Assembly (NCBI GenBank): GCA_018238625.1
Contig: JABCSY010000027.1
Location: 1 to 41,833 of the forward strand
Reading direction: 5' to 3'
Source of the DNA: Promethearchaeota archaeon
GTDB taxonomy: Archaea; Asgardarchaeota; Lokiarchaeia; Sigyniarchaeales; SOKP01
Length of the DNA: 41,833 nt
Of this stretch, positions 12,259-29,512 are shown piece by piece. The number at the start of each line of letters is the position of its first letter. The first letter of the stretch is position 1. A program made the position numbers and the translations under genes. A model generated the notes under the pieces. That model did no database searches. It was not told the origin of the DNA and saw only the letters and a program-made list of their open reading frames with translations.

Positions 12259-15200
12259 TTATATTTTACTTTTAATCAATTTTATATTGCTTTTAAGAAC
12301 TTTTGCTAGGGGAACTTTTCCTGAACCGCTCTGATTAAGCGTGTTTAGGGCGTCTTCATGAATTTTTAAAGCTTCAACGTAAGATTTTTGTTCTAAATAT
12401 GTTAATCCCAATTTATATTGACTGTCTGCTATTCCTTCGCTGTTTTCAATGGATTCGAATATTTTAAGGGCTTTACTACAGGTTTTCCACGCATCCGCGT
12501 ATTTCCCTTGATTGAGATAAGTTAAACCAATATTATTTATATATTGAGCTTTCTTATTCTTGTCATCGTTCTTGTCAGCTATTCTTGAGGCCTCTTCGAA
12601 ACGTTTTAACGCAACGGGATAATTAGCTTCGTCTAAATATATCAACCCTATATTGTTAAGGCTCTCTGCTTTTCGAGAGTAATTCTTTAACTCATTGTCT
12701 ATGTTCAAAGACTCTTCGAATGTCTTCAGCGCATCAAGGTATAATCCCTGATCTCTATAGATCATCGCAGTATTAAATAAATTTTCAGCTCTCTCATTTG
12801 ATGGTCCTAAAACTTTAAACAGTTTTGTTCCTCGATCGTACCACTTAAGAGCTTGGTTGAAGTCACCTCGATCTTGGTATACCAACCCAATTTTATTTAA
12901 ACAATATGTTTTACCGATCAAGTCTCCTCTTTTATCAAATAAATCAAGTGCGAGATTGTAACGTTTAAAAGCATCTCTATAGATGCCTTGCTCGTGGAAA
13001 ATGACACCTATATTACAAAGAATTCGTGCTTTCCTGTCATCGTCATAAATTTGTGTGGAAATCTTAAGAGCTTCGCTATACCACTTCAATCCTTCAGAAT
13101 AGTTATCTAAATTTTGATAAATTGAACCTATACTTTCAAAACAATCAGCGTTACCTTCAAGATTCTCAATTTCATCGAATAATTTATAAGCATCTTCGTA
13201 CCACTTTAGTGCTTCATTGAAATGCTCTTGAACTCTATAAATATCCCCAATTTTGCGTATAATTGTAGCTTCGTTAGTTAAATTCCCTAGTTGTTCCTCA
13301 ATTTCTAACGCTTCTCTATATTTTTCTAAGACTTCATTGTATTTCTTATGAACCAGAAAAACATTGCCAATACATAGAAGCCTTTGTGCTTTCCCTTTCG
13401 TATTTCCTAGTTGATCGTCAATTTTTAACGCTTCTTCGTACATCTTCAACGCTTCTGGAAATTTATCCTCGTCAAAATAGATATCTCCTATACTTGTGAA
13501 GATATCCGCTTTGGTTTCAAGATTTCCTATACTTTCTGAAACATAGATCGCTTCGTTATAATGTCTTAAAGCTTCTGGATAATGCTTTTGGGCTTGATAT
13601 ATTTTGCTTATAATAATAAGTATTTGAATTTGTTCATCGAGATGGCCTAATTCATCCGCTATCAGTAAAGCTTCTTCATAGCGTTTTAAAGCTCCAACAT
13701 AATCCCATTTTTCTCGAAATATATCGCCTATAATACTAAGACAGAGTGCTTTTTTGTGTAGGTTTCCAATTTGCTCAGCTGTTTGAACTGCCTCTTCAAG
13801 TACCTTTAGCGCTTCATTATCCTGTCCTATATAATGGTAGTTAATACCAATCAAATGAAGACTTTCAATTCTCCCTTCCATATTATTTTCTTGATCGAAG
13901 ATTTCAAGCGCTTCTTCAAATTTTTCCATAGCCTGAGAATACACGCCCTGATCTTGGAAAATAGATCCTATCTTGTTAAGCAATTCAGCCTTTTTCCCTT
14001 TTTTACCTAATTTATTAACAACCTCTAGAGCGCTCTTATACCTATTCAAAGCTTCTTTGAAGTTTGCTTGCTCGGCATAGTAATTTCCAATATTTTTTAA
14101 AGAGTCAGCATTTCCTTCAAGGTTTTCTGTTTCTCCATAAATTTCAAGAGCTTCTTGAAAATTTCTAAGTGACTCTAAAAACTTTCTTTGGTCCAGAAAA
14201 ATTTCTCCTATCACATTAAGAGTGGAGGCTTTGCTGTTTAAATCTTCATAGCGTTCAAATATCTCTAATGCCTTTTCAAATCGTCTTAAAGCTTTTAGAT
14301 ACATTTTTTGTTCTTTATGTATAAGTCCTATTTTTTTTAACACATCTACTTTCCCTTTAAGGTCTCCTACCTGATCAAAGAGTTTTAAAGAATCTTCAAA
14401 CCATTTTAATGCTTCAGAATACTTATCTTGATTTTGGAAAATTGTACCTATTTGGTTTGCGAAGTTGGCTTTTAACTCGATGTTCCCCAATTTTTCAGCA
14501 ATTTGAAACCCATCCTCAAAATAATCTAAAGCTTTGATGTAATTCCACTGGTCTCTGTAAATTATCCCTTGGATTTTTAGAGAATCCAATTTCCCTTCAT
14601 TATTTTTTAACCGATCATAAATCCTCAAAGCTTCGTTACACTTATCCAATCCATTTAGGGAATCGCCCATTTCATGAAATATGCGCCCTAAGAGATTAAG
14701 AATTGCTGCTTTATCTTCAAGGTTTTCTAATTGTTCGTTAAGATTCAAGGCTTCTTTAAGATATTTAAGAGCCTCGTTAAAATTCTTTTTTGCATAGTAA
14801 ATTTTCCCTATTTGCTTGTAATTAATCGCTTTATCGCTAAGATTTTCAAGCTTGTCATTAATTTTAATTGCAGCTTCGAAATACTTTAGAGCGTCTTGAT
14901 ATTTCTCTTGATATTGATAATTAATACCAATATGTTTGTATAATTTAGATTTTTCATAAAAATCTTTAATTCGCTCGTTTTCCTTTAAAGCAAATTCAAA
15001 ATTTTGCAAAGCCTCAGAATAATTTTTCTTAGCCTGGTGAATTAGGGCAATATATTTAAAAATTGAAGTTCGTTGAGGAAAGGTTTTTATTTTCAGCTGA
15101 ACTTGTAAAGATTTACGCAACCATTCTAAAGCATCGTTATAATTTAATTGAACGTAATTGATAATTCCCATTTCCATAAGAGCAATTGTTTTCCATTGGT

Positions 15201-16317
15201 TATCTCCCGAATCTTCACTTATCCTAAAAATTCTTTCCAAACACCTTAAAGCATCGTTATAATTTTTTGTCTCAAAGTAAATTTTATTAGATATAAACAA
15301 CTTAGTTAATTCGTTGGGTTCATCAATGTTATCTTTAAACCATTCCATTAAGTCAATAGAAAATTTATCTTTGCTTAATTTTTCTTTTTCCTTAAAGAAT
15401 TTCTCAAGAAATTTGGAAGTGTTCACGTTTAATCGAAAAACATTGACAGAACCATTTAATTGTTTAATTTCTGATAAGGATTGGTCTAATTTATTTAGAT
15501 TTTTAAGATCACTACTCTTTTGTGCGCCGAATTCATAGAGGTCTTCTCTTGATCCTCCGTTTGAAATGTGATTTATCCAGATTAAGTTTTTTAAATTTTT
15601 CATTATTTTAAGGGTCGCCATAAGGTCGAAATCGTTTTTACCAGAATAACCTAAAACTATAAGTGAACGGTCGTTTGAAATTTTATCTAAGAACTGTGCC
15701 TTATAGGGCTCTAATTGGACGATATTACTCTCTGTTTGGTTCAGCCCAATTAATTTTAAAGTGTTGATAAACGATGTTCTCGTATCTTCACCAGTGATGA
15801 TGTTTCTATTAGAACCATGTATTTTATAGACGGGTATCTTTCCATTTTTATATAACTTTTCTGGGTCACTGAATTTTTCGTAATCTTTTTTAGTAATTAC
15901 AGGAACAATCTTCTTCTTAGGAACATTAGATTGTAGTAGAGCATATTCTAATAGAAAATCGAAGTTACTGGTAATAACAAAATGCCCCTTTTTCTTCATC
16001 ATTTCAGCAAGAACAAAATGCTCAAGATTGGGTTTGTCACTTTTTGTGAAAAAGTTAAGAAATCGAAAATCGTCCTCAATCGAATTGTGAATAATTCCTG
16101 CTAAAACTTCAAACCTTAAATTCTGTAACTTCATGATTGCTTCGATCTCAGAATTAGCACAATAAAGCTTAATTAGTGCCTTCATCGTATCATTAGTTGA
16201 TGGTAATCGAGAAGGCGCCTCAACTGAAGCTCCCGCACCCATTAAAAAAGTAAGCTTTTCGTCTGATTCGAATAATTTTGTAACATTAAAATTTTTTGAC
16301 TTTTTAATTGAACTCAT
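12259..16317 (-). CDS. SIR2-like domain + long TPR array protein
   Basis: GAGAS, ITSNFD, KIHGS and LGYSG motifs in the first 250 aa or so, followed by roughly 24-25 repeats of 40 aa (A..L..IG.IY..Q..Y.EAL..FEEAL). Confidence 0.9.
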   Translation of the reverse strand: MSSIKKSKNFNVTKLFESDEKLTFLMGAGASVEAPSRLPSTNDTMKALIKLYCANSEIEAIMKLQNLRFEVLAGIIHNSIEDDFRFLNFFTKSDKPNLEHFVLAEMMKKKGHFVITSNFDFLLEYALLQSNVPKKKIVPVITKKDYEKFSDPEKLYKNGKIPVYKIHGSNRNIITGEDTRTSFINTLKLIGLNQTESNIVQLEPYKAQFLDKISNDRSLIVLGYSGKNDFDLMATLKIMKNLKNLIWINHISNGGSREDLYEFGAQKSSDLKNLNKLDQSLSEIKQLNGSVNVFRLNVNTSKFLEKFFKEKEKLSKDKFSIDLMEWFKDNIDEPNELTKLFISNKIYFETKNYNDALRCLERIFRISEDSGDNQWKTIALMEMGIINYVQLNYNDALEWLRKSLQVQLKIKTFPQRTSIFKYIALIHQAKKNYSEALQNFEFALKENERIKDFYEKSKLYKHIGINYQYQEKYQDALKYFEAAIKINDKLENLSDKAINYKQIGKIYYAKKNFNEALKYLKEALNLNEQLENLEDKAAILNLLGRIFHEMGDSLNGLDKCNEALRIYDRLKNNEGKLDSLKIQGIIYRDQWNYIKALDYFEDGFQIAEKLGNIELKANFANQIGTIFQNQDKYSEALKWFEDSLKLFDQVGDLKGKVDVLKKIGLIHKEQKMYLKALRRFEKALEIFERYEDLNSKASTLNVIGEIFLDQRKFLESLRNFQEALEIYGETENLEGNADSLKNIGNYYAEQANFKEALNRYKSALEVVNKLGKKGKKAELLNKIGSIFQDQGVYSQAMEKFEEALEIFDQENNMEGRIESLHLIGINYHYIGQDNEALKVLEEAVQTAEQIGNLHKKALCLSIIGDIFREKWDYVGALKRYEEALLIADELGHLDEQIQILIIISKIYQAQKHYPEALRHYNEAIYVSESIGNLETKADIFTSIGDIYFDEDKFPEALKMYEEALKIDDQLGNTKGKAQRLLCIGNVFLVHKKYNEVLEKYREALEIEEQLGNLTNEATIIRKIGDIYRVQEHFNEALKWYEDAYKLFDEIENLEGNADCFESIGSIYQNLDNYSEGLKWYSEALKISTQIYDDDRKARILCNIGVIFHEQGIYRDAFKRYNLALDLFDKRGDLIGKTYCLNKIGLVYQDRGDFNQALKWYDRGTKLFKVLGPSNERAENLFNTAMIYRDQGLYLDALKTFEESLNIDNELKNYSRKAESLNNIGLIYLDEANYPVALKRFEEASRIADKNDDKNKKAQYINNIGLTYLNQGKYADAWKTCSKALKIFESIENSEGIADSQYKLGLTYLEQKSYVEALKIHEDALNTLNQSGSGKVPLAKVLKSNIKLIKSKI

Positions 16318-20221: not shown

Positions 20222-20956
20222 ATGAGTTCTGATGAAAATATAAAAAAACTAAATAAAGAACTATCTGAATTATTAGAAAAAGAAATTAATAACAGAAAAA
20301 GCATTCTAGGCATCTCAATTTCAACTCACGGCGGAACACATCTCGTTAGTAAACTAAAAGAAGACATTACAATGACAAACTCTGAGATCTCTGCTGCGAG
20401 TAGTAGCTTAGTTTTTATATCTTCTAAAATATTAAAAGACTCGCTAAACCAGCAAATTTCGTATAATTTGATCACGGGAGAAAAAAGAATAATTCTATCT
20501 ATTTTAACTGAAAATATCGCTCTTATCGCTTACCTAAATAGAGAGATAGCTGAGCTTGAGGGTTTAGATTCTTATATAACTTCCTTGAGGAGATTTGCGG
20601 TAAAGATTTCTGCATTCGTAGAGACTAGCGATCTTATTAAAGAAGAAGTCTTCGTAGCCATTAAAAGATCAATCCCAAACGCATTAGTTATCGCGATAAT
20701 TACTAAAGATGGTTTGCCAATTAAAGTTCAATCTACTATGCCAGAGCCTATACTTTCAGCAATGACTTCCGCTATTTTCAATTTAGCGGGGATCCTTTTG
20801 GAAGAGGGATTAGAATTCTCGATTATAGGGGGCGAAAACGGTTCAATAATTATCCACGAATTAGATGAGAGTAGGATACTCGCAATCGCAGTTCCAGAAG
20901 CAGACGAGAGAAAATTAGGCTCCTACATTGCTAAGATTAAATCAATTATCAAATAA
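20222..20956 (+). CDS. Tandem roadblock/LC7 domain protein
   Basis: Two roadblock-like units (ILGISISTHGGTHLVS..ISAASSSL; VIAIITKDGLPIK..LSAMTSAIF..IIGGENGSIII). Confidence 0.8.
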   Translation: MSSDENIKKLNKELSELLEKEINNRKSILGISISTHGGTHLVSKLKEDITMTNSEISAASSSLVFISSKILKDSLNQQISYNLITGEKRIILSILTENIALIAYLNREIAELEGLDSYITSLRRFAVKISAFVETSDLIKEEVFVAIKRSIPNALVIAIITKDGLPIKVQSTMPEPILSAMTSAIFNLAGILLEEGLEFSIIGGENGSIIIHELDESRILAIAVPEADERKLGSYIAKIKSIIK

Positions 20957-22259: not shown

Positions 22260-24502
22260 TTAAAGGATTTTCTTAAGTTCTAAAATTAAGTTTTTAGGGT
22301 TAATGCCATCGAATTGAAATATTTCTGCTTTTCCGTATTCTTTAAAGTTTCTTTTAATGTTGTCCGCTGCGAAGGTATTTACACCCAACGATTTTGTCGC
22401 GTATGACTTCCGCGGCTCTAAAACGACCATATGTGCTCCTTTCTTGGATAAATTCTTTGTTAATGCTTTTAATTCGTTAATAATTAATGTGTAGTCTGTT
22501 TGAACTTGAGCAATTAAATCAGGAAATTTATAGGAAATGTTAGCTCCGCAATCCGAACAGACGAAAACAACGGGAATCATATTTCTATTCTTTAGTTTTT
22601 CAGTGTTTATAAGCTTTAAGCATTTTATCAACGCTGCGGCCATAGGCGTGTAAGACTTTCCTTTAATCTTTTTCATTTTATTTACAGCAGTTTTAAAGTA
22701 AACCGTAGGTTTCTGAAGAACGATGGCTTCTTTTCCTCGAAAGATGATGAGGCTTATTTTATCCTTTTTCCGGTATCCCTCTCGTTGTAACGATAGAATA
22801 ACATCTGTCATTTGTTTAATTACGTAATGCATCGAAGCGGAACTGTCGAGTACAAAAAATAAAACTAATGGCGCGCGATATTCGTATACTTTGTCCATTA
22901 AATCGTATTTGTCAAATTTTATTGGAAAGTCTATATCCGTTTGATTGTATATAGTATTTTTCAAATAGGTCCTTATCGTTGCGTCAAGAGCTATGCTTTT
23001 AGGTCGATTAATAGGCTGTCGATATGAAACATACCTCCCCTTTTGAGAAGAAGCTATTTTTATGCGCCGCCCAATTCCTCTACCTCCGTAATCAGATATT
23101 TTTCGATCTTTTCGAATATTATCTAGTATCGAAGTCATTTTTTTTTCCATATTGTAAATTAATGGCATCGAACTTAATCCGTTATCAAAGAAATTAAAAT
23201 CTCGCTCTTCAATTTCGGGAATATCTTTTACTTTCCAGCCTCCACCAGGCGTTGGGTTTCTTTTTTTATTATCAGGGTATTTAGGGGGTGGAAGTTTCTG
23301 TTCTTTTGACTCTGGAATGTCAATTTTTCTTGGATCAACAGATTGTCTTTTGAATTCCTTTTGAGGGGTGTCATCGTGCTTTAACGGACCTTCAGTTTCT
23401 CTATTTGGTTGATAAATATTTGGATCCTCGTAAGCTTTTTGTATCTTTCCGTAAACTTCAAAGATTTTCGCTTTAACTTCTTCAGGAGTCATCTCGTAAT
23501 GGAGCGAGCGAATTCTATGTTCAAACACTAATTCCATAGCCGCATTTAAATCTTCTTCAATAACTTCCTTTCGACCGTTTAAAGCAGCGTGAGCTCTCGC
23601 GCATCGTATAAACGTAATATCTGCTCTTTGTGAAAAAATATCCAATTCGCTAACTAATTTAGATACGAATTCGTAAACGGTTGAGGGAATTTGGACTTCC
23701 TTTATAATTTGACGAGCATTCACGATTTTCTTTTTTAAATCTTCTTGTTCTTGCTCGTACTTCTTAATAAAATCCTTTGGGTTATCGTTAAAATCAATAA
23801 CACTCTTAGTTATTTCTGCTCGTAACTTGCTATCTCTAGGTGCTTTTATCTTAACCTCTAATCCAAGACGATCGGCTATCTGCGGTCGGAGCTCTCCCTT
23901 TCCGAATCCTAATTCGATATGAAAGTAGGATCTTCGGGGTTCATGCTTCCGACTAATACAAATCGAGATGGATGAGCAACTGAAATTCCTTCACGTTCTA
24001 TGATGTTAACACCAGAAGCAGCGGAATCTAAAAGCACATCAACAATATGATCTTGTAATAAATTAATCTCATCGACATATAAAATTCCTCGATTTGCTTT
24101 AGCAAGTAAGCCGGGATGAAGACTTCGGATTCCTTCAGTAAGTACTTTATCAATAGACAGTGAACCGCAGACCATATCTTCGGTTACTCCTAATGGTAAG
24201 TCAACGATAGGCATGCTTCTTTTAATTTTTTCCAAAGTTCCATTCTTATGTTTAATACGACACTCATCACACAAATCTTCAATCTCTGAACTTGGTTCGC
24301 ATGAAAATACGCATTCCTTAACCGCATCAAGCTCAGGCATTAGTTCAGCTAAGCTCCTCACAGCAGTCGATTTTCCAGTTCCTTGTTGCCCAGTTAGTAA
24401 TACTCCACTAATTTGAGGGTCAATAACATTTAAAATGAGAGCCATTTTCATTTTATCTTGACCGAGTATTGCTGTAAATGGGAAATTAATCCTTTTTACC
24501 AT
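22260..24502 (-). CDS. ChlI/ChlD-like chelatase-family AAA+ ATPase fused to vWA; predicted spliced CDS join(23932..24502,22260..23899), 736 aa
   Basis: FPFTAILGQ, Walker A GQQGTGKS, PGLLAKANRGILYVDE, NPEEGELRPQIADR (after removing the 32 nt), RAHAALNGR, Pro-rich linker, MIDAS DSSAS. The spliced length of 2211 nt is in frame with no stops. Confidence 0.88.
23900..23931 (-). other. Putative 32-nt bulge-helix-bulge/loop (BHB/BHL) mRNA intron
   Basis: Sense sequence AUCCUACUUUCAUAUCGAAUUAGGAUUCGGAA. Central helix CCGA/UCGG, bulges AG^A and AA^A, intron stem UCCUA/UAGGA, exon-exon pairs CC/GG. Carries an in-frame UAG. Confidence 0.8.
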
Positions 24503-24637
24503 GACGAGTTGAGAAAAACTTCATTTGTATTAAAAATTTCCCCTAATTACAAATTATTATAGTTATTAATTAATTTAAAAGAAAAATGAGGTTGGTTTTT
24601 TCAAATATGAAAAATTAATTATTTAGTTTTAAGAATC

Positions 24638-25588
24638 TTAGAATTTGTTAGCAATTTCTGCCAATTTTACGCCTAGTTTTTCAACAGTTTCGTCCCATTT
24701 AGACATTATCTCTTTTATTTTCGGAACAATACTTTCTCTTTCTTTATACTCCAAATAATTCGTGAATTCCTTGATATTTTCTATTTTAATAAAAGTTTCA
24801 GCCACAAATTTGCGAATATCTCGAGTCTGAATGTTTAAAACTTCTTCTACTCTACTCGATTCCCCCTTTCTAAGTAACGTAGTTAAATACTCTTCCGTTC
24901 CTTGCAATAACGAATTCAGTTCGTTAACCCTATCGGTTACGAACTTATCGTATGTTTCAAATATGTTGTCTTTAGGGAACATATTAGTAATGTCGATTAC
25001 AAATTTCTGCGTTAATACGACCAATTGCTCCATGCTTTCATATCCTTCAATTTTGTAGTCTGTAGTATGATACGATGCCTGAATTCCTTTGGTAACATCA
25101 TCTAATCTAAATATCTTAAAACCAGGATCGTTTTTCAGCGGTTTCAATGGATCCCCTTTTTTATTAGGAAGCTCTATTTGTCTTACTAACCTATCTGGAT
25201 TAAACACGAGCGATATCGCGAGCGGATTATTGATTTGATAGCTCAATGTCGTTTTGATATCTATGTGGCTCATCATAATTTTGAATCCGGGGTGAGAGTG
25301 CCACCATCCTACTGTAAATTCGTTCCTCGAAAACGCTTCGTCGTCTATAATATATAGTGCTTCGTAATCTTCGTCGCTCCACTTATATTGATCGATAACA
25401 GCGTCTTTATCTAATTTTTGATGCATTATAGGGTAAGCTTTTGTAATAAGGACGTCTTTTCCTTCGTTTTTTCCTATAAAAATGCCTGAAACTTCAAGCC
25501 AATCGTCTTTATCAATGCGTCTATTAGCCTGTCTCACGCAAGCAGCTACTATAGTTAAATAAACATCTTTAGGGATAAGAACTGTCAT
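24638..25588 (-). CDS. MPN/JAMM metalloprotease (Rpn11/CSN5-like) with helical C-terminus
   Basis: LEVSG and VGWWHSHPGFKIMMSHID form a complete E..HxH-x7-S-xx-D motif. Confidence 0.9.
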   Translation of the reverse strand: MTVLIPKDVYLTIVAACVRQANRRIDKDDWLEVSGIFIGKNEGKDVLITKAYPIMHQKLDKDAVIDQYKWSDEDYEALYIIDDEAFSRNEFTVGWWHSHPGFKIMMSHIDIKTTLSYQINNPLAISLVFNPDRLVRQIELPNKKGDPLKPLKNDPGFKIFRLDDVTKGIQASYHTTDYKIEGYESMEQLVVLTQKFVIDITNMFPKDNIFETYDKFVTDRVNELNSLLQGTEEYLTTLLRKGESSRVEEVLNIQTRDIRKFVAETFIKIENIKEFTNYLEYKERESIVPKIKEIMSKWDETVEKLGVKLAEIANKF

Positions 25589-26454: not shown

Positions 26455-26672
26455 TGAAATTTTGATTTTATTTTATATTTCCTTATTATAACTACTTCTT
26501 AATTTACATTTTAATACTACTTTTTTGAAATATGTATAATCAATTTTCTAAATTTTCAATTACCAATAAAAAAGATATAAAATTATATTTTATATTAAGT
26601 GTTTAAAATTAAAATGGTTTAAAGTATAAATATAACAAAAATATTTTGTTTAAATAAGTAAAGTGATTGAAA

Positions 26673-28127
26673 ATGGGGAAAGATGTGGATAACAGCGTAG
26701 TAATGATCAAATCTCTCGCGTATTATAAGATGATATTACACGTATTACGTTTTGGAAATAAAGCCCGAAATAATTCTCAATGTATCGAAGTAATGGGAGT
26801 ACTTATTGGACACCTCGAAGATGGCGAAGATAAAAAATTTAAGAATGTCATTATTGAGGATGCCATACCAGTTTCTCATGGGAGCAGCGTAGAAGTAGAA
26901 TTCTCGATTAACGATTATATATTTTTTGAAAAAGCGAATTCCATGTTCTTAGAAAAGAATTGGTTCATGGTTGGCTGGTATCATTCACATCCAAATTTGT
27001 TTCAGCACAAAATTTTCTTTTCACCTACAGACGTTAAAAACCAGTTTGGTTGGCAAAACGAATTGAACCCTAGTGGAATCGCGTTGGTTTTTGATCATGC
27101 TTATTTAGATAAGTCCGACGATCCTGGATTTAGAGCAATTCGATTGACTAATCCATCAAACATTCGAGATTCAAATGTTCACCAAGTTAAGACAATTGTT
27201 GAGACACCAGATAATTTTGACTATTACTTTAAAATTATAGAATTAATAAATAATGTACACTCGAGAGAACCTCCCATCACTGAGGAGAACGAAACGGTGG
27301 GCATATTTGGGGATGTAAAGGTTCCTGAGCTTAGCCAATTGCAGTTTAAGCAGCCAGAAATAAATCCACGTAAAATAGTTGATTCTTTTCAAGTAGGACT
27401 CGCTAATTTTTTGGATTTATCGTTAACTCCTTTAATAAGTTTCCTAAATTCTCTTAGCGTAAATATTTCAGCAAATATAGAAGGTAATAATATAAAAATT
27501 AGAAAAGATTTAACTCTTTTAAAAGAAATGATAAACGCGGGAATTGATAAAATACAGAGGAAATACAAGGACGATTTAAATTCTGAGTTATTCAAGGCGG
27601 AAGGGTATGTAGACGATTTCCTAGACCAAATTGACGGATATCAAGCAGAAATTGCCGAGTTACTAAAAGAGATTAATGTTATCGTTAAAGAAAAAGTTGA
27701 TACGCTATTTAAAGAAAAGTTCGAAGGGGTAATAAATGATTTCTCGAGAGATTTTGATGATTGCCAGAAAAAATTGATAAATTATAATGGTGGTGTGTCT
27801 GTTAATCTTAGTAATTTAGAGAAACTAGAAAAATCATTAAGTTCCTTATCTGAACAAATAAAATCAGTAAAAAATGCCACTCTTGATAAGATAAAAACAA
27901 TGCAAAAAGAAACTTACGATATGACTTCAAAAAAACACAATATAGCATTAAATAACTTGAACAACCTTAATAAAAAGTCGCAAAAATTCTTAACGAATTT
28001 AAAAGCCGCTGTTTTGATTTTGGAGGGGACGAAAGCTCCTATTTTAGAGAAAATTGATAAATTAGAATCTGAAAAAAAACAACTATTACTAAAAATTAAG
28101 AAGCTAGAAGAGGGAGGTAACAAATAA
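26673..28127 (+). CDS. MPN/JAMM domain + long coiled-coil protein
   Basis: IEVMGVLIG and VGWYHSHPNLFQHKIFFSPTD, followed by about 250 aa of heptad-rich helix. Confidence 0.88.
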   Translation: MGKDVDNSVVMIKSLAYYKMILHVLRFGNKARNNSQCIEVMGVLIGHLEDGEDKKFKNVIIEDAIPVSHGSSVEVEFSINDYIFFEKANSMFLEKNWFMVGWYHSHPNLFQHKIFFSPTDVKNQFGWQNELNPSGIALVFDHAYLDKSDDPGFRAIRLTNPSNIRDSNVHQVKTIVETPDNFDYYFKIIELINNVHSREPPITEENETVGIFGDVKVPELSQLQFKQPEINPRKIVDSFQVGLANFLDLSLTPLISFLNSLSVNISANIEGNNIKIRKDLTLLKEMINAGIDKIQRKYKDDLNSELFKAEGYVDDFLDQIDGYQAEIAELLKEINVIVKEKVDTLFKEKFEGVINDFSRDFDDCQKKLINYNGGVSVNLSNLEKLEKSLSSLSEQIKSVKNATLDKIKTMQKETYDMTSKKHNIALNNLNNLNKKSQKFLTNLKAAVLILEGTKAPILEKIDKLESEKKQLLLKIKKLEEGGNK

Positions 28128-28129
28128 AG

Positions 28130-29512
28130 ATGACGGAAAACAATAGAGAAATTAGCGAGAAAGGTAGAGTTTTCATTGAAATGACTCCTTTTAAGGATAT
28201 GTTTACCCATGTATTAAGGTTTGCTAACGTTGTACTAGAATATAACGAACAGGTTCTTGGATTTTGCATTGGAAAAAAGAACCCTGATAACGATAACATT
28301 ACCATAACAAAGATTATTCCAATCACGCATGGAGATGAAGTAGAATTAGGTTTTTCGGAAAAGATTCACAAATCACTTATTCAAATCCAAGAAGAAGCTT
28401 CAAACGAGAATCTTGTAGTCGTAGGATGGTATCACTCGCATCCTGAGGCTGAAACCCTTTTCTTTTCTGAAGTTGATAAAAAAAATCACCTTTATTTTCA
28501 GAACGAAAAATTCAAATATGGATTTGGAATTGTTTTCGACCATTCCAAAATGAAAAAATCAGATAATTTTGGTTTAGAAGTTTTTCGATTAGAAAATTTC
28601 TCAAAAGGAGATAAAAGCGATTATATAAGAGTTAAACACGAAATAGAGGTACCAAACTCTTTAGACTTTTATAAATGGGTTCAGAGATTCGTTGAATATG
28701 GACAAACAAAAAGTCCTATAATAATTAAGGAAAGATTAGAATTAAGAGAACAAGTTCCGCGCGACCTTCAAGAAATTCCGATGTCCACGGAGCAATTGGA
28801 AATGGAAATCGATTTAGAATACCAAGATATTAATCCAGTTGCAGATGGTTTTAAAAAAGGATTACAAAATTTTTCGAACTTAGTTTTAAATGATTACAAA
28901 TCGGAATTAGAAACTTGGTCGTCTGAATTTAACGACGGCGCGTTAAAAGGTCTAAATAAAATTAGTGACTCGCTAGCACAAATGAATTTAACAATAGATA
29001 ATGGTTTTGAAAGAGTAGAAAAATGGATCGAAACGAAGTTTAAAGAAAGAATTAACGAATATAAAGAAAAAGTAGAAGGATACGTAAATAAGCGCCTTTC
29101 AGGACAAGAAAGTTTGAAAGCTAATACAAGCGAAACTAAAGAAATCTTAACGAGCGAGATAAACAAACACTTAGAGCAGAGTATCGATTATATCACTAAG
29201 TCGATTAAAAAAGATCTCAACGAGATTATTAACAAACTATACGAAGTTTCGATGCAAGATGCGAAGATAAAAGAAAGAATTGAAATTTCAACTAAAGAGA
29301 TTTCAAGTTTGACGGAACAAATCCAAAATCTCTCGATTGATATGTTGAAAGGGATAAGTGCGATAAACCACCCTTTCGAAACAAATCTATCTACTAACTA
29401 CGATAAATTAATCACGGAACTTGAACCATTCAAAGACAATTTTGACGAATTTGAGACATTTATTGAGAGGTTGCAAAAGATAATTCCTGATTTTCGCAAT
29501 ATTAAAAAATAG
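28130..29512 (+). CDS. MPN domain + long coiled-coil protein (paralogue; Gln at the canonical catalytic Glu position)
   Basis: EQVLGFCIG and VGWYHSHPEAETLFFSEVD; starts 2 bp after the upstream paralogue, with GGAGGT SD. Confidence 0.88.
   Translation: MTENNREISEKGRVFIEMTPFKDMFTHVLRFANVVLEYNEQVLGFCIGKKNPDNDNITITKIIPITHGDEVELGFSEKIHKSLIQIQEEASNENLVVVGWYHSHPEAETLFFSEVDKKNHLYFQNEKFKYGFGIVFDHSKMKKSDNFGLEVFRLENFSKGDKSDYIRVKHEIEVPNSLDFYKWVQRFVEYGQTKSPIIIKERLELREQVPRDLQEIPMSTEQLEMEIDLEYQDINPVADGFKKGLQNFSNLVLNDYKSELETWSSEFNDGALKGLNKISDSLAQMNLTIDNGFERVEKWIETKFKERINEYKEKVEGYVNKRLSGQESLKANTSETKEILTSEINKHLEQSIDYITKSIKKDLNEIINKLYEVSMQDAKIKERIEISTKEISSLTEQIQNLSIDMLKGISAINHPFETNLSTNYDKLITELEPFKDNFDEFETFIERLQKIIPDFRNIKK

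Follow-up and report, generated by a model that had tools for sequence, protein, structure and literature searches.

The locus

The window analysed here is a stretch of 41,833 nucleotides (nt) from a Promethearchaeota archaeon (contig JABCSY010000027.1 of assembly GCA_018238625.1, a genome called G000 below), and all coordinates are window positions. Its minus strand carries a ChlI/ChlD-like gene with AAA+ and vWA domains that is broken by an insert of 32 nt, for which an original prediction, made from the sequence alone, had proposed a bulge-helix-bulge (BHB) intron. An open reading frame (ORF) that starts with ATG runs from 24502 to 23909, encodes 197 amino acids (aa) and ends ..GSMNPEDPTFISN*, and a second open frame on the same strand extends from near 23897 down to a stop at 22260. 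Read without splicing, frame 0 stops at a UAG (..NPEDPTFISN*), and the conserved GELRPQIADR.. continues in another frame. The 32 nt at 23931..23900 split the motif MNPEE|GELRPQ. They were present as predicted, as were the minus-strand text and every coordinate of the proposed pairings, and excising exactly these nucleotides gives an ORF of 736 aa plus stop, so that the stop-free frame expected from cuts by the EndA rule was obtained.

The 5' exon (23932..24502, minus strand), delimited by the ORF, Pfam and TIGR02442, begins with the ATG at 24502, ends with G23932 and encodes residues 1-190 plus the first base of Glu191. The insert (23900..23931, minus strand), delimited by orthologues and by a contig from an RNA library, introduces a UAG into the reading frame together with a frameshift of 2; its ends could equally be placed at 23899-23930, with an A flanking both ends. 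In the 3' exon (22260..23899, minus strand) A23899 and G23898 finish the Glu191 codon and are followed by the AAA lid, a linker, the vWA domain and the stop at 22262-22260. An unspliced message would yield only the truncated fragment of 197 aa.

The two pieces were compared with TIGR02442, the NCBIfam profile of the ChlI-ChlD fusion ('putative cobaltochelatase', 641 positions, curated cut-off 779.45 bits). The N piece corresponds to positions 1-181 and the C piece to 182-622, with neither gap nor overlap; because the pieces meet at 181/182, the break is seamless and lies inside the AAA+ core. Scored separately they reach 285.3 and 277.0 bits and cover positions 1-622 of 641, and since their simple sum (562) stays under the cut-off we call the gene ChlI/ChlD-like and not cobaltochelatase. 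Pfam finds Mg_chelatase and AAA_5 in the N piece and AAA_lid_2 and VWA_2 in the C piece, so that once the pieces are joined an AAA+ module, an AAA lid and a C-terminal vWA domain stand in one chain. The genome also holds a 656-aa paralogue on another contig.

Relatives with and without the insert

Among 41 genomes (40 relatives plus G000), the 197-aa piece was matched in 38. Thirty of the loci were aligned, as the original prediction had proposed: five have the 32-nt insert at the identical site, while 25 read MNPEEG(E/D)LRPQ uninterrupted, and the predicted junction NPEEGELRPQ is therefore the sequence of the uninterrupted orthologues, except for the E/D at one position. A DNA-pattern search of the whole order found the insert in 7 of 154 genomes, all in the same genus (7/42, against 0/112 outside it), and the reversed control pattern gave no match in the 154. 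The insert was found in five metagenome contigs too.

A protein survey of the genus recovered the gene in 39 of the 42 genomes. Seven copies are split at the insert site and 32 have no insert there; of the latter, 26 are uninterrupted and full-length, four have a single in-frame TAA elsewhere, and two are partial but uninterrupted at the site.

We also considered whether the insert could be a multi-copy mobile element, a candidate that was rejected. Its core matched 8 of the 42 genomes: seven of these matches are the chelatase-like gene itself, and the eighth (G140), antisense and inside an uninterrupted ORF, was judged to be due to chance, so the core occurs in no other gene among the 42 genomes.

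The RNA motif

Folded without constraint, the minus-strand RNA 23955..23880 gives a minimum free energy (MFE) structure made of an outer helix, a bulge, a helix of four base pairs, a second bulge and an intron stem. Its energy is -24.5 kcal/mol, compared with a mean of -16.45 (standard deviation 3.09, z -2.61) for shuffled sequences, of which 3 in 200 fold as well. In the central helix the exonic strand CCGA (23934..23937) pairs with the intronic strand UCGG (23902..23905), both on the minus strand like all elements that follow; the pairing is seen in the MFE fold and in the carrier alignment, and CCGA is invariant in 7/7 genomes and 5/5 metagenome contigs. The 5' bulge, A-G|A (23931..23933), has its predicted cut after G23932, which is indicated by the fold, the restored frame and the joint in the RNA contig; the 3' bulge, A-A|A (23899..23901), has its predicted cut after A23900, indicated by the fold, the alignment and the RNA contig. 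Outside these, CC (23938..23939), namely the third base of the Asn codon and the first of the Pro codon, pairs with GG (23897..23898), the last base of the Glu191 codon GAG and the first of Gly192; this outer helix, seen in fold and alignment, shows no change in any carrier. Within the intron there is a separate hairpin (23907..23930), with a stem of five base pairs, UCCUA (23930-26)/UAGGA (23911-07), and an apical stem of three, UUC (23923-21)/GAA (23915-13), in which 95.8% of the cells of the carrier alignment are paired.

In the MFE fold A23931 pairs with U23906, which leaves a 5' bulge of only 2 nt. Among carriers position 23931 is A, U or G, and the U23906 opposite is invariant; the form common to all carriers is therefore a 3-nt bulge facing one unpaired U, that is, a relaxed motif, which bears out the bulge-helix-loop (BHL) type with an extra U that had been predicted. 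The longer exon-exon pairing GGAAGC/GCUCC occurs in G000 only and is not conserved in other carriers.

The archaeal splicing endonuclease EndA cuts after the second nucleotide of each bulge. Applied here, the rule gives cuts at 23932|23931 and 23900|23899, which coincide with the ends set independently by the intron-less orthologues. To judge this coincidence we note that in a scan of the whole genome with a permissive BHB rule 1,210,116 of about 1.6e9 cut-site pairs passed (about 7e-4, the denominator being obtained by arithmetic); since only some 7 in 10,000 arbitrary pairs pass, the match is not expected by chance. In canonical tRNA introns each strand reads, 5' to 3', flank helix, 4-bp helix, bulge and flank helix, and the strand order found here fits this layout. 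According to Marck and Grosjean (2003) the flanking helices h and h' reportedly need at least 2 bp. Rfam gave no family for 23600-24200 at E values up to 1, and no tRNA gene was found in the window.

Codons and pairs conserved within the motif

The exonic half of the motif is made of codons, and their usage differs between carriers and intron-less relatives. All seven carriers read AAC CCC GAA GAG, a combination found in none of 21 intron-less loci, which use AAT or AAC, all four Pro codons and GAA or GAG. For Asn, AAC stands in 7/7 carriers against AAT in 14/21 intron-less loci, and at the junction the Glu codon is GAG in 7/7 carriers against GAA in 17/21. Four synonymous sites of the motif are thus frozen in every carrier, two of them base-paired and two in bulges.

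The six core pairs are invariant, and 97.6% of cells are paired, compared with 17-62% when the partners are slid by one to three columns. At 23929/23908 four distinct sequences have a C-G pair and two have a U-A pair, the one compensatory stem change that the alignment of orthologues yielded, and pair 23930/23907 is U-A, or U-G in one. The intron itself is identical between carriers at 23-32 of its 32 positions, even though these carriers share just 40-59% identity at third codon positions; for the pair of G000 and G023 the figures are 31/32 and 49%.

A joined form in an RNA library

The stretch was matched in 20 public runs from 12 studies, mostly of DNA, and the four runs that are RNA or possibly RNA (X17-X20) were compared at the junction. 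In the metatranscriptome run X20 a contig of 240 nt with a depth of 5.3 aligns to 23752-23898 and 23931-24022; it skips 32 nt which, with the placement freedom of 1 nt, are 23900-23931, and has 7 further mismatches to the window among 239 letters (about 97% identical). This contig is a first direct hint of the joined form. A second X20 contig (record 14, 23838-24024) has no 32-nt insert either, but 25 of its letters differ and its codons read AAT CCT GAG GAA GGC, and for this reason we assign it to a diverged intron-less relative in the same sample. Concerning the other runs, the junction is uncovered: X17 and X18 span only 22404-23575, and X19, which is probably DNA, lacks 23786-24631.

The splicing machinery of the host

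Among relatives that have a name, those nearest to the gene bear the titles Promethearchaeota or Promethearchaeia, the current names of Asgard/Loki-type archaea; these titles, together with three JAB/MPN proteins and a Roadblock domain nearby, agree with the Asgard-type lineage that the original prediction had assigned. The genome, which is metagenome-derived, comprises 4.29 Mb in 201 contigs, with 97.9% completeness and 7.6% estimated contamination. It encodes two tRNA-intron endonucleases (EndA, PF01974) above the Pfam cut-off, at 97.7 and 73.8 bits, and an RtcB ligase above its cut-off at 556.8 bits. The EndA of 200 aa, on contig C58, is alpha-like: its closest match is 3p1z_B (E 8e-35), the catalytic subunit in the heterotetramer of Aeropyrum pernix, and it aligns through the loop region of that enzyme, which on our reading of the alignment would be the L1 specificity loop. 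The EndA of 201 aa, on contig C7, has Ser where the Methanocaldococcus jannaschii enzyme has an aligned His, which we take to be the catalytic residue, and this suggests that it is a structural beta subunit. ARAGORN called 30 tRNA genes in the genome, 11 of them with introns of which several are doubtful, and these calls were not used as evidence.

This gene content can be compared with what has been described for the group. Asgard archaea have (alpha-beta)2 EndA with an L1 loop, and only such broad-specificity types cut relaxed motifs (PMC5829648), while Asgard tRNA genes are heavily interrupted and 44 of 60 genomes have two full-length EndA paralogues (bioRxiv 10.64898/2026.10.13.758758).

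Selection, interpretation and alternatives

We propose that the locus holds one functional ChlI/ChlD-like AAA+-vWA ATPase gene, broken by a 32-nt BHB intron that EndA and RtcB remove from the mRNA, and we give this reading a probability of roughly 0.85. In the proposed mechanism the exon bases CC-CCGA of the pre-mRNA would pair with the intronic UCGG and the exonic GG, and the intron would fold its own hairpin, so that two 3-nt bulges four base pairs apart are presented. EndA is the presumed cutting enzyme at the two predicted sites, after G23932 and A23900. RtcB would then join the exons to GAA-GAG-GGA (..MNPEEGELRPQ..), which would allow the 736-aa product, and it would probably circularise the intron too. 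The comparative support for splicing is strong; that EndA and RtcB are the enzymes at work, and that splicing takes place in the cell, is inferred. The regulatory switch that the original prediction had suggested is speculative. The tRNA-type splicing of an Asgard mRNA other than cbf5, as originally predicted, is in line with the profile join, the conservation in seven species, the selection on both exons, the frozen sites, the presence of EndA and RtcB, and the RNA contig.

The first alternative to be weighed is a tolerated gene fission, in which the N piece of 197 aa and a separately initiated C piece would work as two proteins with no splicing at all. Gene callers would indeed report two ORFs, ChlI-like and ChlD-like modules are separate genes in many organisms, and other families in this genome show both fused and split arrangements. 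However, the break does not fall at a domain border but inside the AAA+ core, at profile positions 181/182. Moreover, the C piece could be initiated no earlier than 58 codons downstream of the junction, yet the 57 codons that begin two codons after the junction and end immediately ahead of this earliest start have a nonsynonymous divergence (dN) of 0-0.06 in informative pairs, against a synonymous divergence (dS) of 0.13-3.1. With dN so far below dS, this stretch without a start is evidently translated. Fission would also leave the frozen synonymous sites and the conserved hairpin without explanation, and the contig from the RNA library has the joined form; we therefore consider it very improbable.

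About as improbable is translational recoding, in which the RNA would stay unchanged and the ribosome would get past the insert by shifting to the -1 frame or by hopping over it, as happens in phage T4 gene 60. The insert does contain a stable hairpin, and about 24 codons of the target frame ahead of the junction are free of stops, so that a -1 shift before the UAG would yield a readable product. Against this, CCC GAA GAU CCU ACU UUC AUA UCG AAU UAG contains no slippery heptamer, and a hop from GAA (23935-33) to GAA (23902-00) lands in the wrong frame (AGG GAG AGC). The product of a frameshift would gain about 10 residues inside the conserved NPEEGELRPQ, the peptide that the intron encodes is not conserved (DPTFISN, DPIFTAN, VSQFNSN, GSQFVSN), and the RNA-library contig lacks the 32 nt.

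That the gene is a pseudogene, or the insert a decaying insertion scar, has in our view a still smaller chance. A stop and a frameshift in the middle of a conserved motif could be read in this way, and the 656-aa paralogue might cover the function. But seven species keep exactly 32 nt, and both exons are open for all the codons covered in the seven carriers, in which no further disabling mutations were seen. We computed pairwise dN/dS among carriers where dS was unsaturated (between the two carrier clades it is saturated) and obtained 0.04-0.10 for the 5' exon and 0.04-0.12 for the 3' exon. The values near 1, which the original prediction had named as the sign of a pseudogene, were not found, and the ratios indicate that both exons are under purifying selection. 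The insert is, in addition, more conserved than synonymous sites. Finally, an assembly or sequencing artefact, for which the fragmented, metagenome-derived and partly contaminated assembly could speak, has a negligible probability, as the insert occurs in seven separately assembled genomes with substitutions of their own and in five metagenome contigs.

Several observations weigh against splicing of this intron, or at least temper the case for it. The exact skip expected in RNA was found, but the RNA support consists of one short contig of low depth, with 7 mismatches in 239, from one library that may contain DNA; it is not yet decisive, and X20 contains no unspliced RNA contig at the junction. 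In favour of splicing, a near-identical uninterrupted allele was not found, the highest identity to the 5' exon product being 88% among the 120 best longer proteins listed, in a control that covered cluster representatives and scored 8000 candidates. However, P0005, an uninterrupted protein of 735 aa from public metagenome assemblies, is 92-93% identical to both spliced halves of the carrier G023. Close intron-less relatives therefore occur, presence and absence differ between quite close relatives, and an intron-less close relative of G000's own species is also conceivable.

The motif, moreover, is not strictly canonical, having only two conserved outer pairs and a 5' bulge that either lies opposite an extra U or, when A23931 pairs with U23906, is reduced to 2 nt. 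The covariation is real but thin: there is one compensatory pair, probably from one event, and 24 of 500 shuffles reach its score. Lastly, the gene is mosaic, and species may have exchanged the intron recently, which could account for part of its strong conservation.

Search for further introns in the genome

A genome-wide scan of split genes for BHB or BHL motifs, which the original prediction had pointed to, brought up no case beyond the chelatase-like insert. Two screens were applied to G000. The structural and ORF-joining scan gave 7327 matches, mostly ordinary adjacent genes, of which 726 were left after a filter for absence of a start codon; among about 180 of these 726 with an intron of at most 70 nt that were listed, only the chelatase-like insert has a central helix with three G-C pairs and no G-U. 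The second screen looked for paralogues spanning 3665 adjacent ORF pairs and found 24 pairs with a paralogue covering both. The chelatase-like insert was recovered among them, and the others that were inspected either are neighbouring genes, each with a ribosome-binding site and an ATG of its own, or carry single in-frame stops. Both screens are insensitive, and they argue only weakly for an absence of further BHB introns in coding sequences of G000.

Comparison with known systems

In the literature searched, no BHB intron is reported in a protein-coding gene of Asgard archaea, with the limit that supplementary tables lay outside the search and may list further mRNA substrates. A BHB intron of coding sequence is documented there in archaea only for cbf5 of Crenarchaeota, to which one case from the 5' untranslated region (UTR) of a Haloferax gene is to be added. 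The intron in the cbf5 pre-mRNA was reportedly described by Watanabe in 2002. In a later study, the intron of this pseudouridine synthase gene is patchily distributed in Crenarchaeota, and the gene tree points to lineage-specific loss (Yokobori 2009, PMC2738675). The chelatase-like case resembles it in being a short tRNA-type intron within coding sequence, in hosts with a hetero-oligomeric EndA and with a patchy distribution. It differs in the gene family, here AAA+-vWA chelatase-like, and in the host, which belongs to the Promethearchaeota/Asgard phylum and, by the labels of the runs, to marine-sediment and cold-seep metagenomes; its distribution is narrower (7/42 genomes of one genus), and cbf5 splicing has been shown experimentally, whereas here there is one RNA-library contig.

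A 2020 paper confirms in vivo and in vitro a BHB intron in the 5' UTR of the HVO_1309 mRNA of Haloferax volcanii, and besides this case of its own mentions only the cbf5 intron as known (PMC7714728). As we propose for our gene, an mRNA is there the substrate of the tRNA splicing endonuclease; unlike that untranslated leader, the chelatase-like intron lies in coding sequence and would decide whether the full protein can be made. With the introns of Asgard tRNA genes, described in two sources as having non-canonical BHB motifs (bioRxiv 10.64898/2026.10.13.758758, PMC5829648), our case shares the host group, a presumed (alpha-beta)2 EndA, a similar size class and repeated gains and losses. In those introns, however, the exon half of the motif is the body of the tRNA, while here it is built from codons with frozen synonymous sites.

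In the splicing of HAC1 and XBP1 mRNA in eukaryotes, IRE1 cuts and Trl1 or RtcB ligates, and the reaction serves as a regulated stress switch. There too the intron is short, a protein endonuclease cuts at stem-loops, a ligase of tRNA-splicing type joins the ends, and a change of frame decides which protein is made; however, the endonuclease (IRE1) and the motif are different, and for the chelatase-like intron a role as a switch is speculative. The connection of RtcB with XBP1 is mentioned in PMC8718801.

Our analysis thus supports a new gene family and a new phylum for archaeal pre-mRNA BHB introns. Such an intron in a second family, and in Asgard archaea, would mean that messages are edited by the tRNA-splicing machinery in the prokaryotes most closely related to eukaryotes, and that a splice motif can put codons under constraint. 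For annotation, the consequence would be that genes of this kind appear as two fragments or are taken for pseudogenes, which would bias gene content and pathway calls for these genomes.

History of the proposed intron

The distribution within the genus (seven genomes with the intron and 32 without it at the site, four of which have a different insert) makes the gene a tractable system for intron gain and loss. In a DNA tree of the 5' exon the seven carriers and three genomes with the other insert form one clade (support 87 in the Shimodaira-Hasegawa-like approximate likelihood ratio test, SH-aLRT), on which the intron needs two changes, for instance one gain and one loss. The tree of the 3' exon is discordant: G000, G131, G008 and G016 group together (support 100) beside intron-less genomes, and G023 and G006 are placed elsewhere. 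In a sliding comparison, G000 and G008 share 86-98% identity upstream of the gene and 90-99% in the part that follows from about 120 nt after the first base of the intron. In the region between, which begins shortly before the ATG, contains the intron and extends about 90 nt past its end, identity is only 58-81%. Judged by these comparisons, the gene start together with the intron behaves as an exchanged block. Compared with the loci of G008 (L013) and G016 (L014), the mosaic pattern lies at about 23810-24640 of the window.

No endonuclease gene was found tied to the intron, the upstream spacer of G000 (135 nt) being too small for one and the alternative upstream gene having no Pfam family. 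That alternative gene, of about 474 aa, stands upstream in four of the seven carriers (L004, L014, L034 and L005, oriented positions 1-1420); its unfamiliar product ends ..ELTKKGxxALSxxxYFKxYYS, and it replaces the JAB/MPN gene that is upstream in G000, G008 and the intron-less G002. G131 differs from G000 upstream although their chelatase-like genes are about 97% identical.

A second insert was found in 4 of the 42 genomes of the genus, which do not have the 32-nt intron. It measures 30 nt, contains an in-frame TAA and lies between ..EVYGK and IEKA.., at L042:1501-1544 in G022 and likewise in G001 (L041), G015 (L043) and G146 (L044); in the window this site would fall close to 23445 (minus strand), 157 codons downstream of the intron site, and the sub-lineage that has it falls within the carrier clade. 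Public records list the products of these genes as proteins of 348 aa; the mis-annotation as split genes that the original prediction expected was seen only for this 30-nt insert of sister species. Parsed by hand, the insert gives a weaker, relaxed BHB-like motif: it has CGG/CCG with an A.G mismatch, a pair of AAA bulges separated by four positions, and a hairpin of AGAG with CUCU, and cuts by the rule excise exactly 30 nt. Folding programs did not return this parse.

A further reading can tentatively be drawn from the carrier clade of the 32-nt intron, the 30-nt sub-lineage, the uninterrupted relative of one carrier and the exchangeable block. This block starts at the promoter, takes in the 5' exon and the intron, and ends about 90 nt into the 3' exon; the species between which it behaves as exchangeable share about 95% identity in the flanks. 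On this reading introns may be actively turning over at this gene within the protein-coding DNA of Asgard archaea: mini-introns with no endonuclease gene of their own would spread by homologous recombination with co-conversion of the flanking exons, and would be lost precisely. We regard this as a rather doubtful possibility for now; if true, it would provide a prokaryotic model for intron gain and loss in the lineage nearest to eukaryotes.

Neighbouring genes and other loci

Ten neighbouring ORFs were scanned and contain ATP-grasp, NTP transferase, PHP, hydrolase, TPR and Roadblock domains and three JAB/MPN proteins; CobN was not among these ten, which show no link to a large subunit of CobN/ChlH type or to a tetrapyrrole pathway, and the rest of the genome was not searched for CobN. 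The JAB/MPN proteins and a Roadblock/LC7 protein surround the chelatase-like gene at 24638-25588 (minus strand), 26667-28127 (plus), 28130-29512 (plus) and 20222-20956 (plus). Further away, at 12259-16317, a SIR2-like plus TPR protein of 1352 aa is encoded.

Outside the window, the minus strands of contigs C32, C119 and C26 of the same genome carry three paralogous genes with a single in-frame TGA in the context ..PTDDC(S/G)I[TGA].., which presumably encode HdrA-like proteins with selenocysteine; an 810-aa paralogue on contig C48 has an amino acid residue at the position of the TGA.

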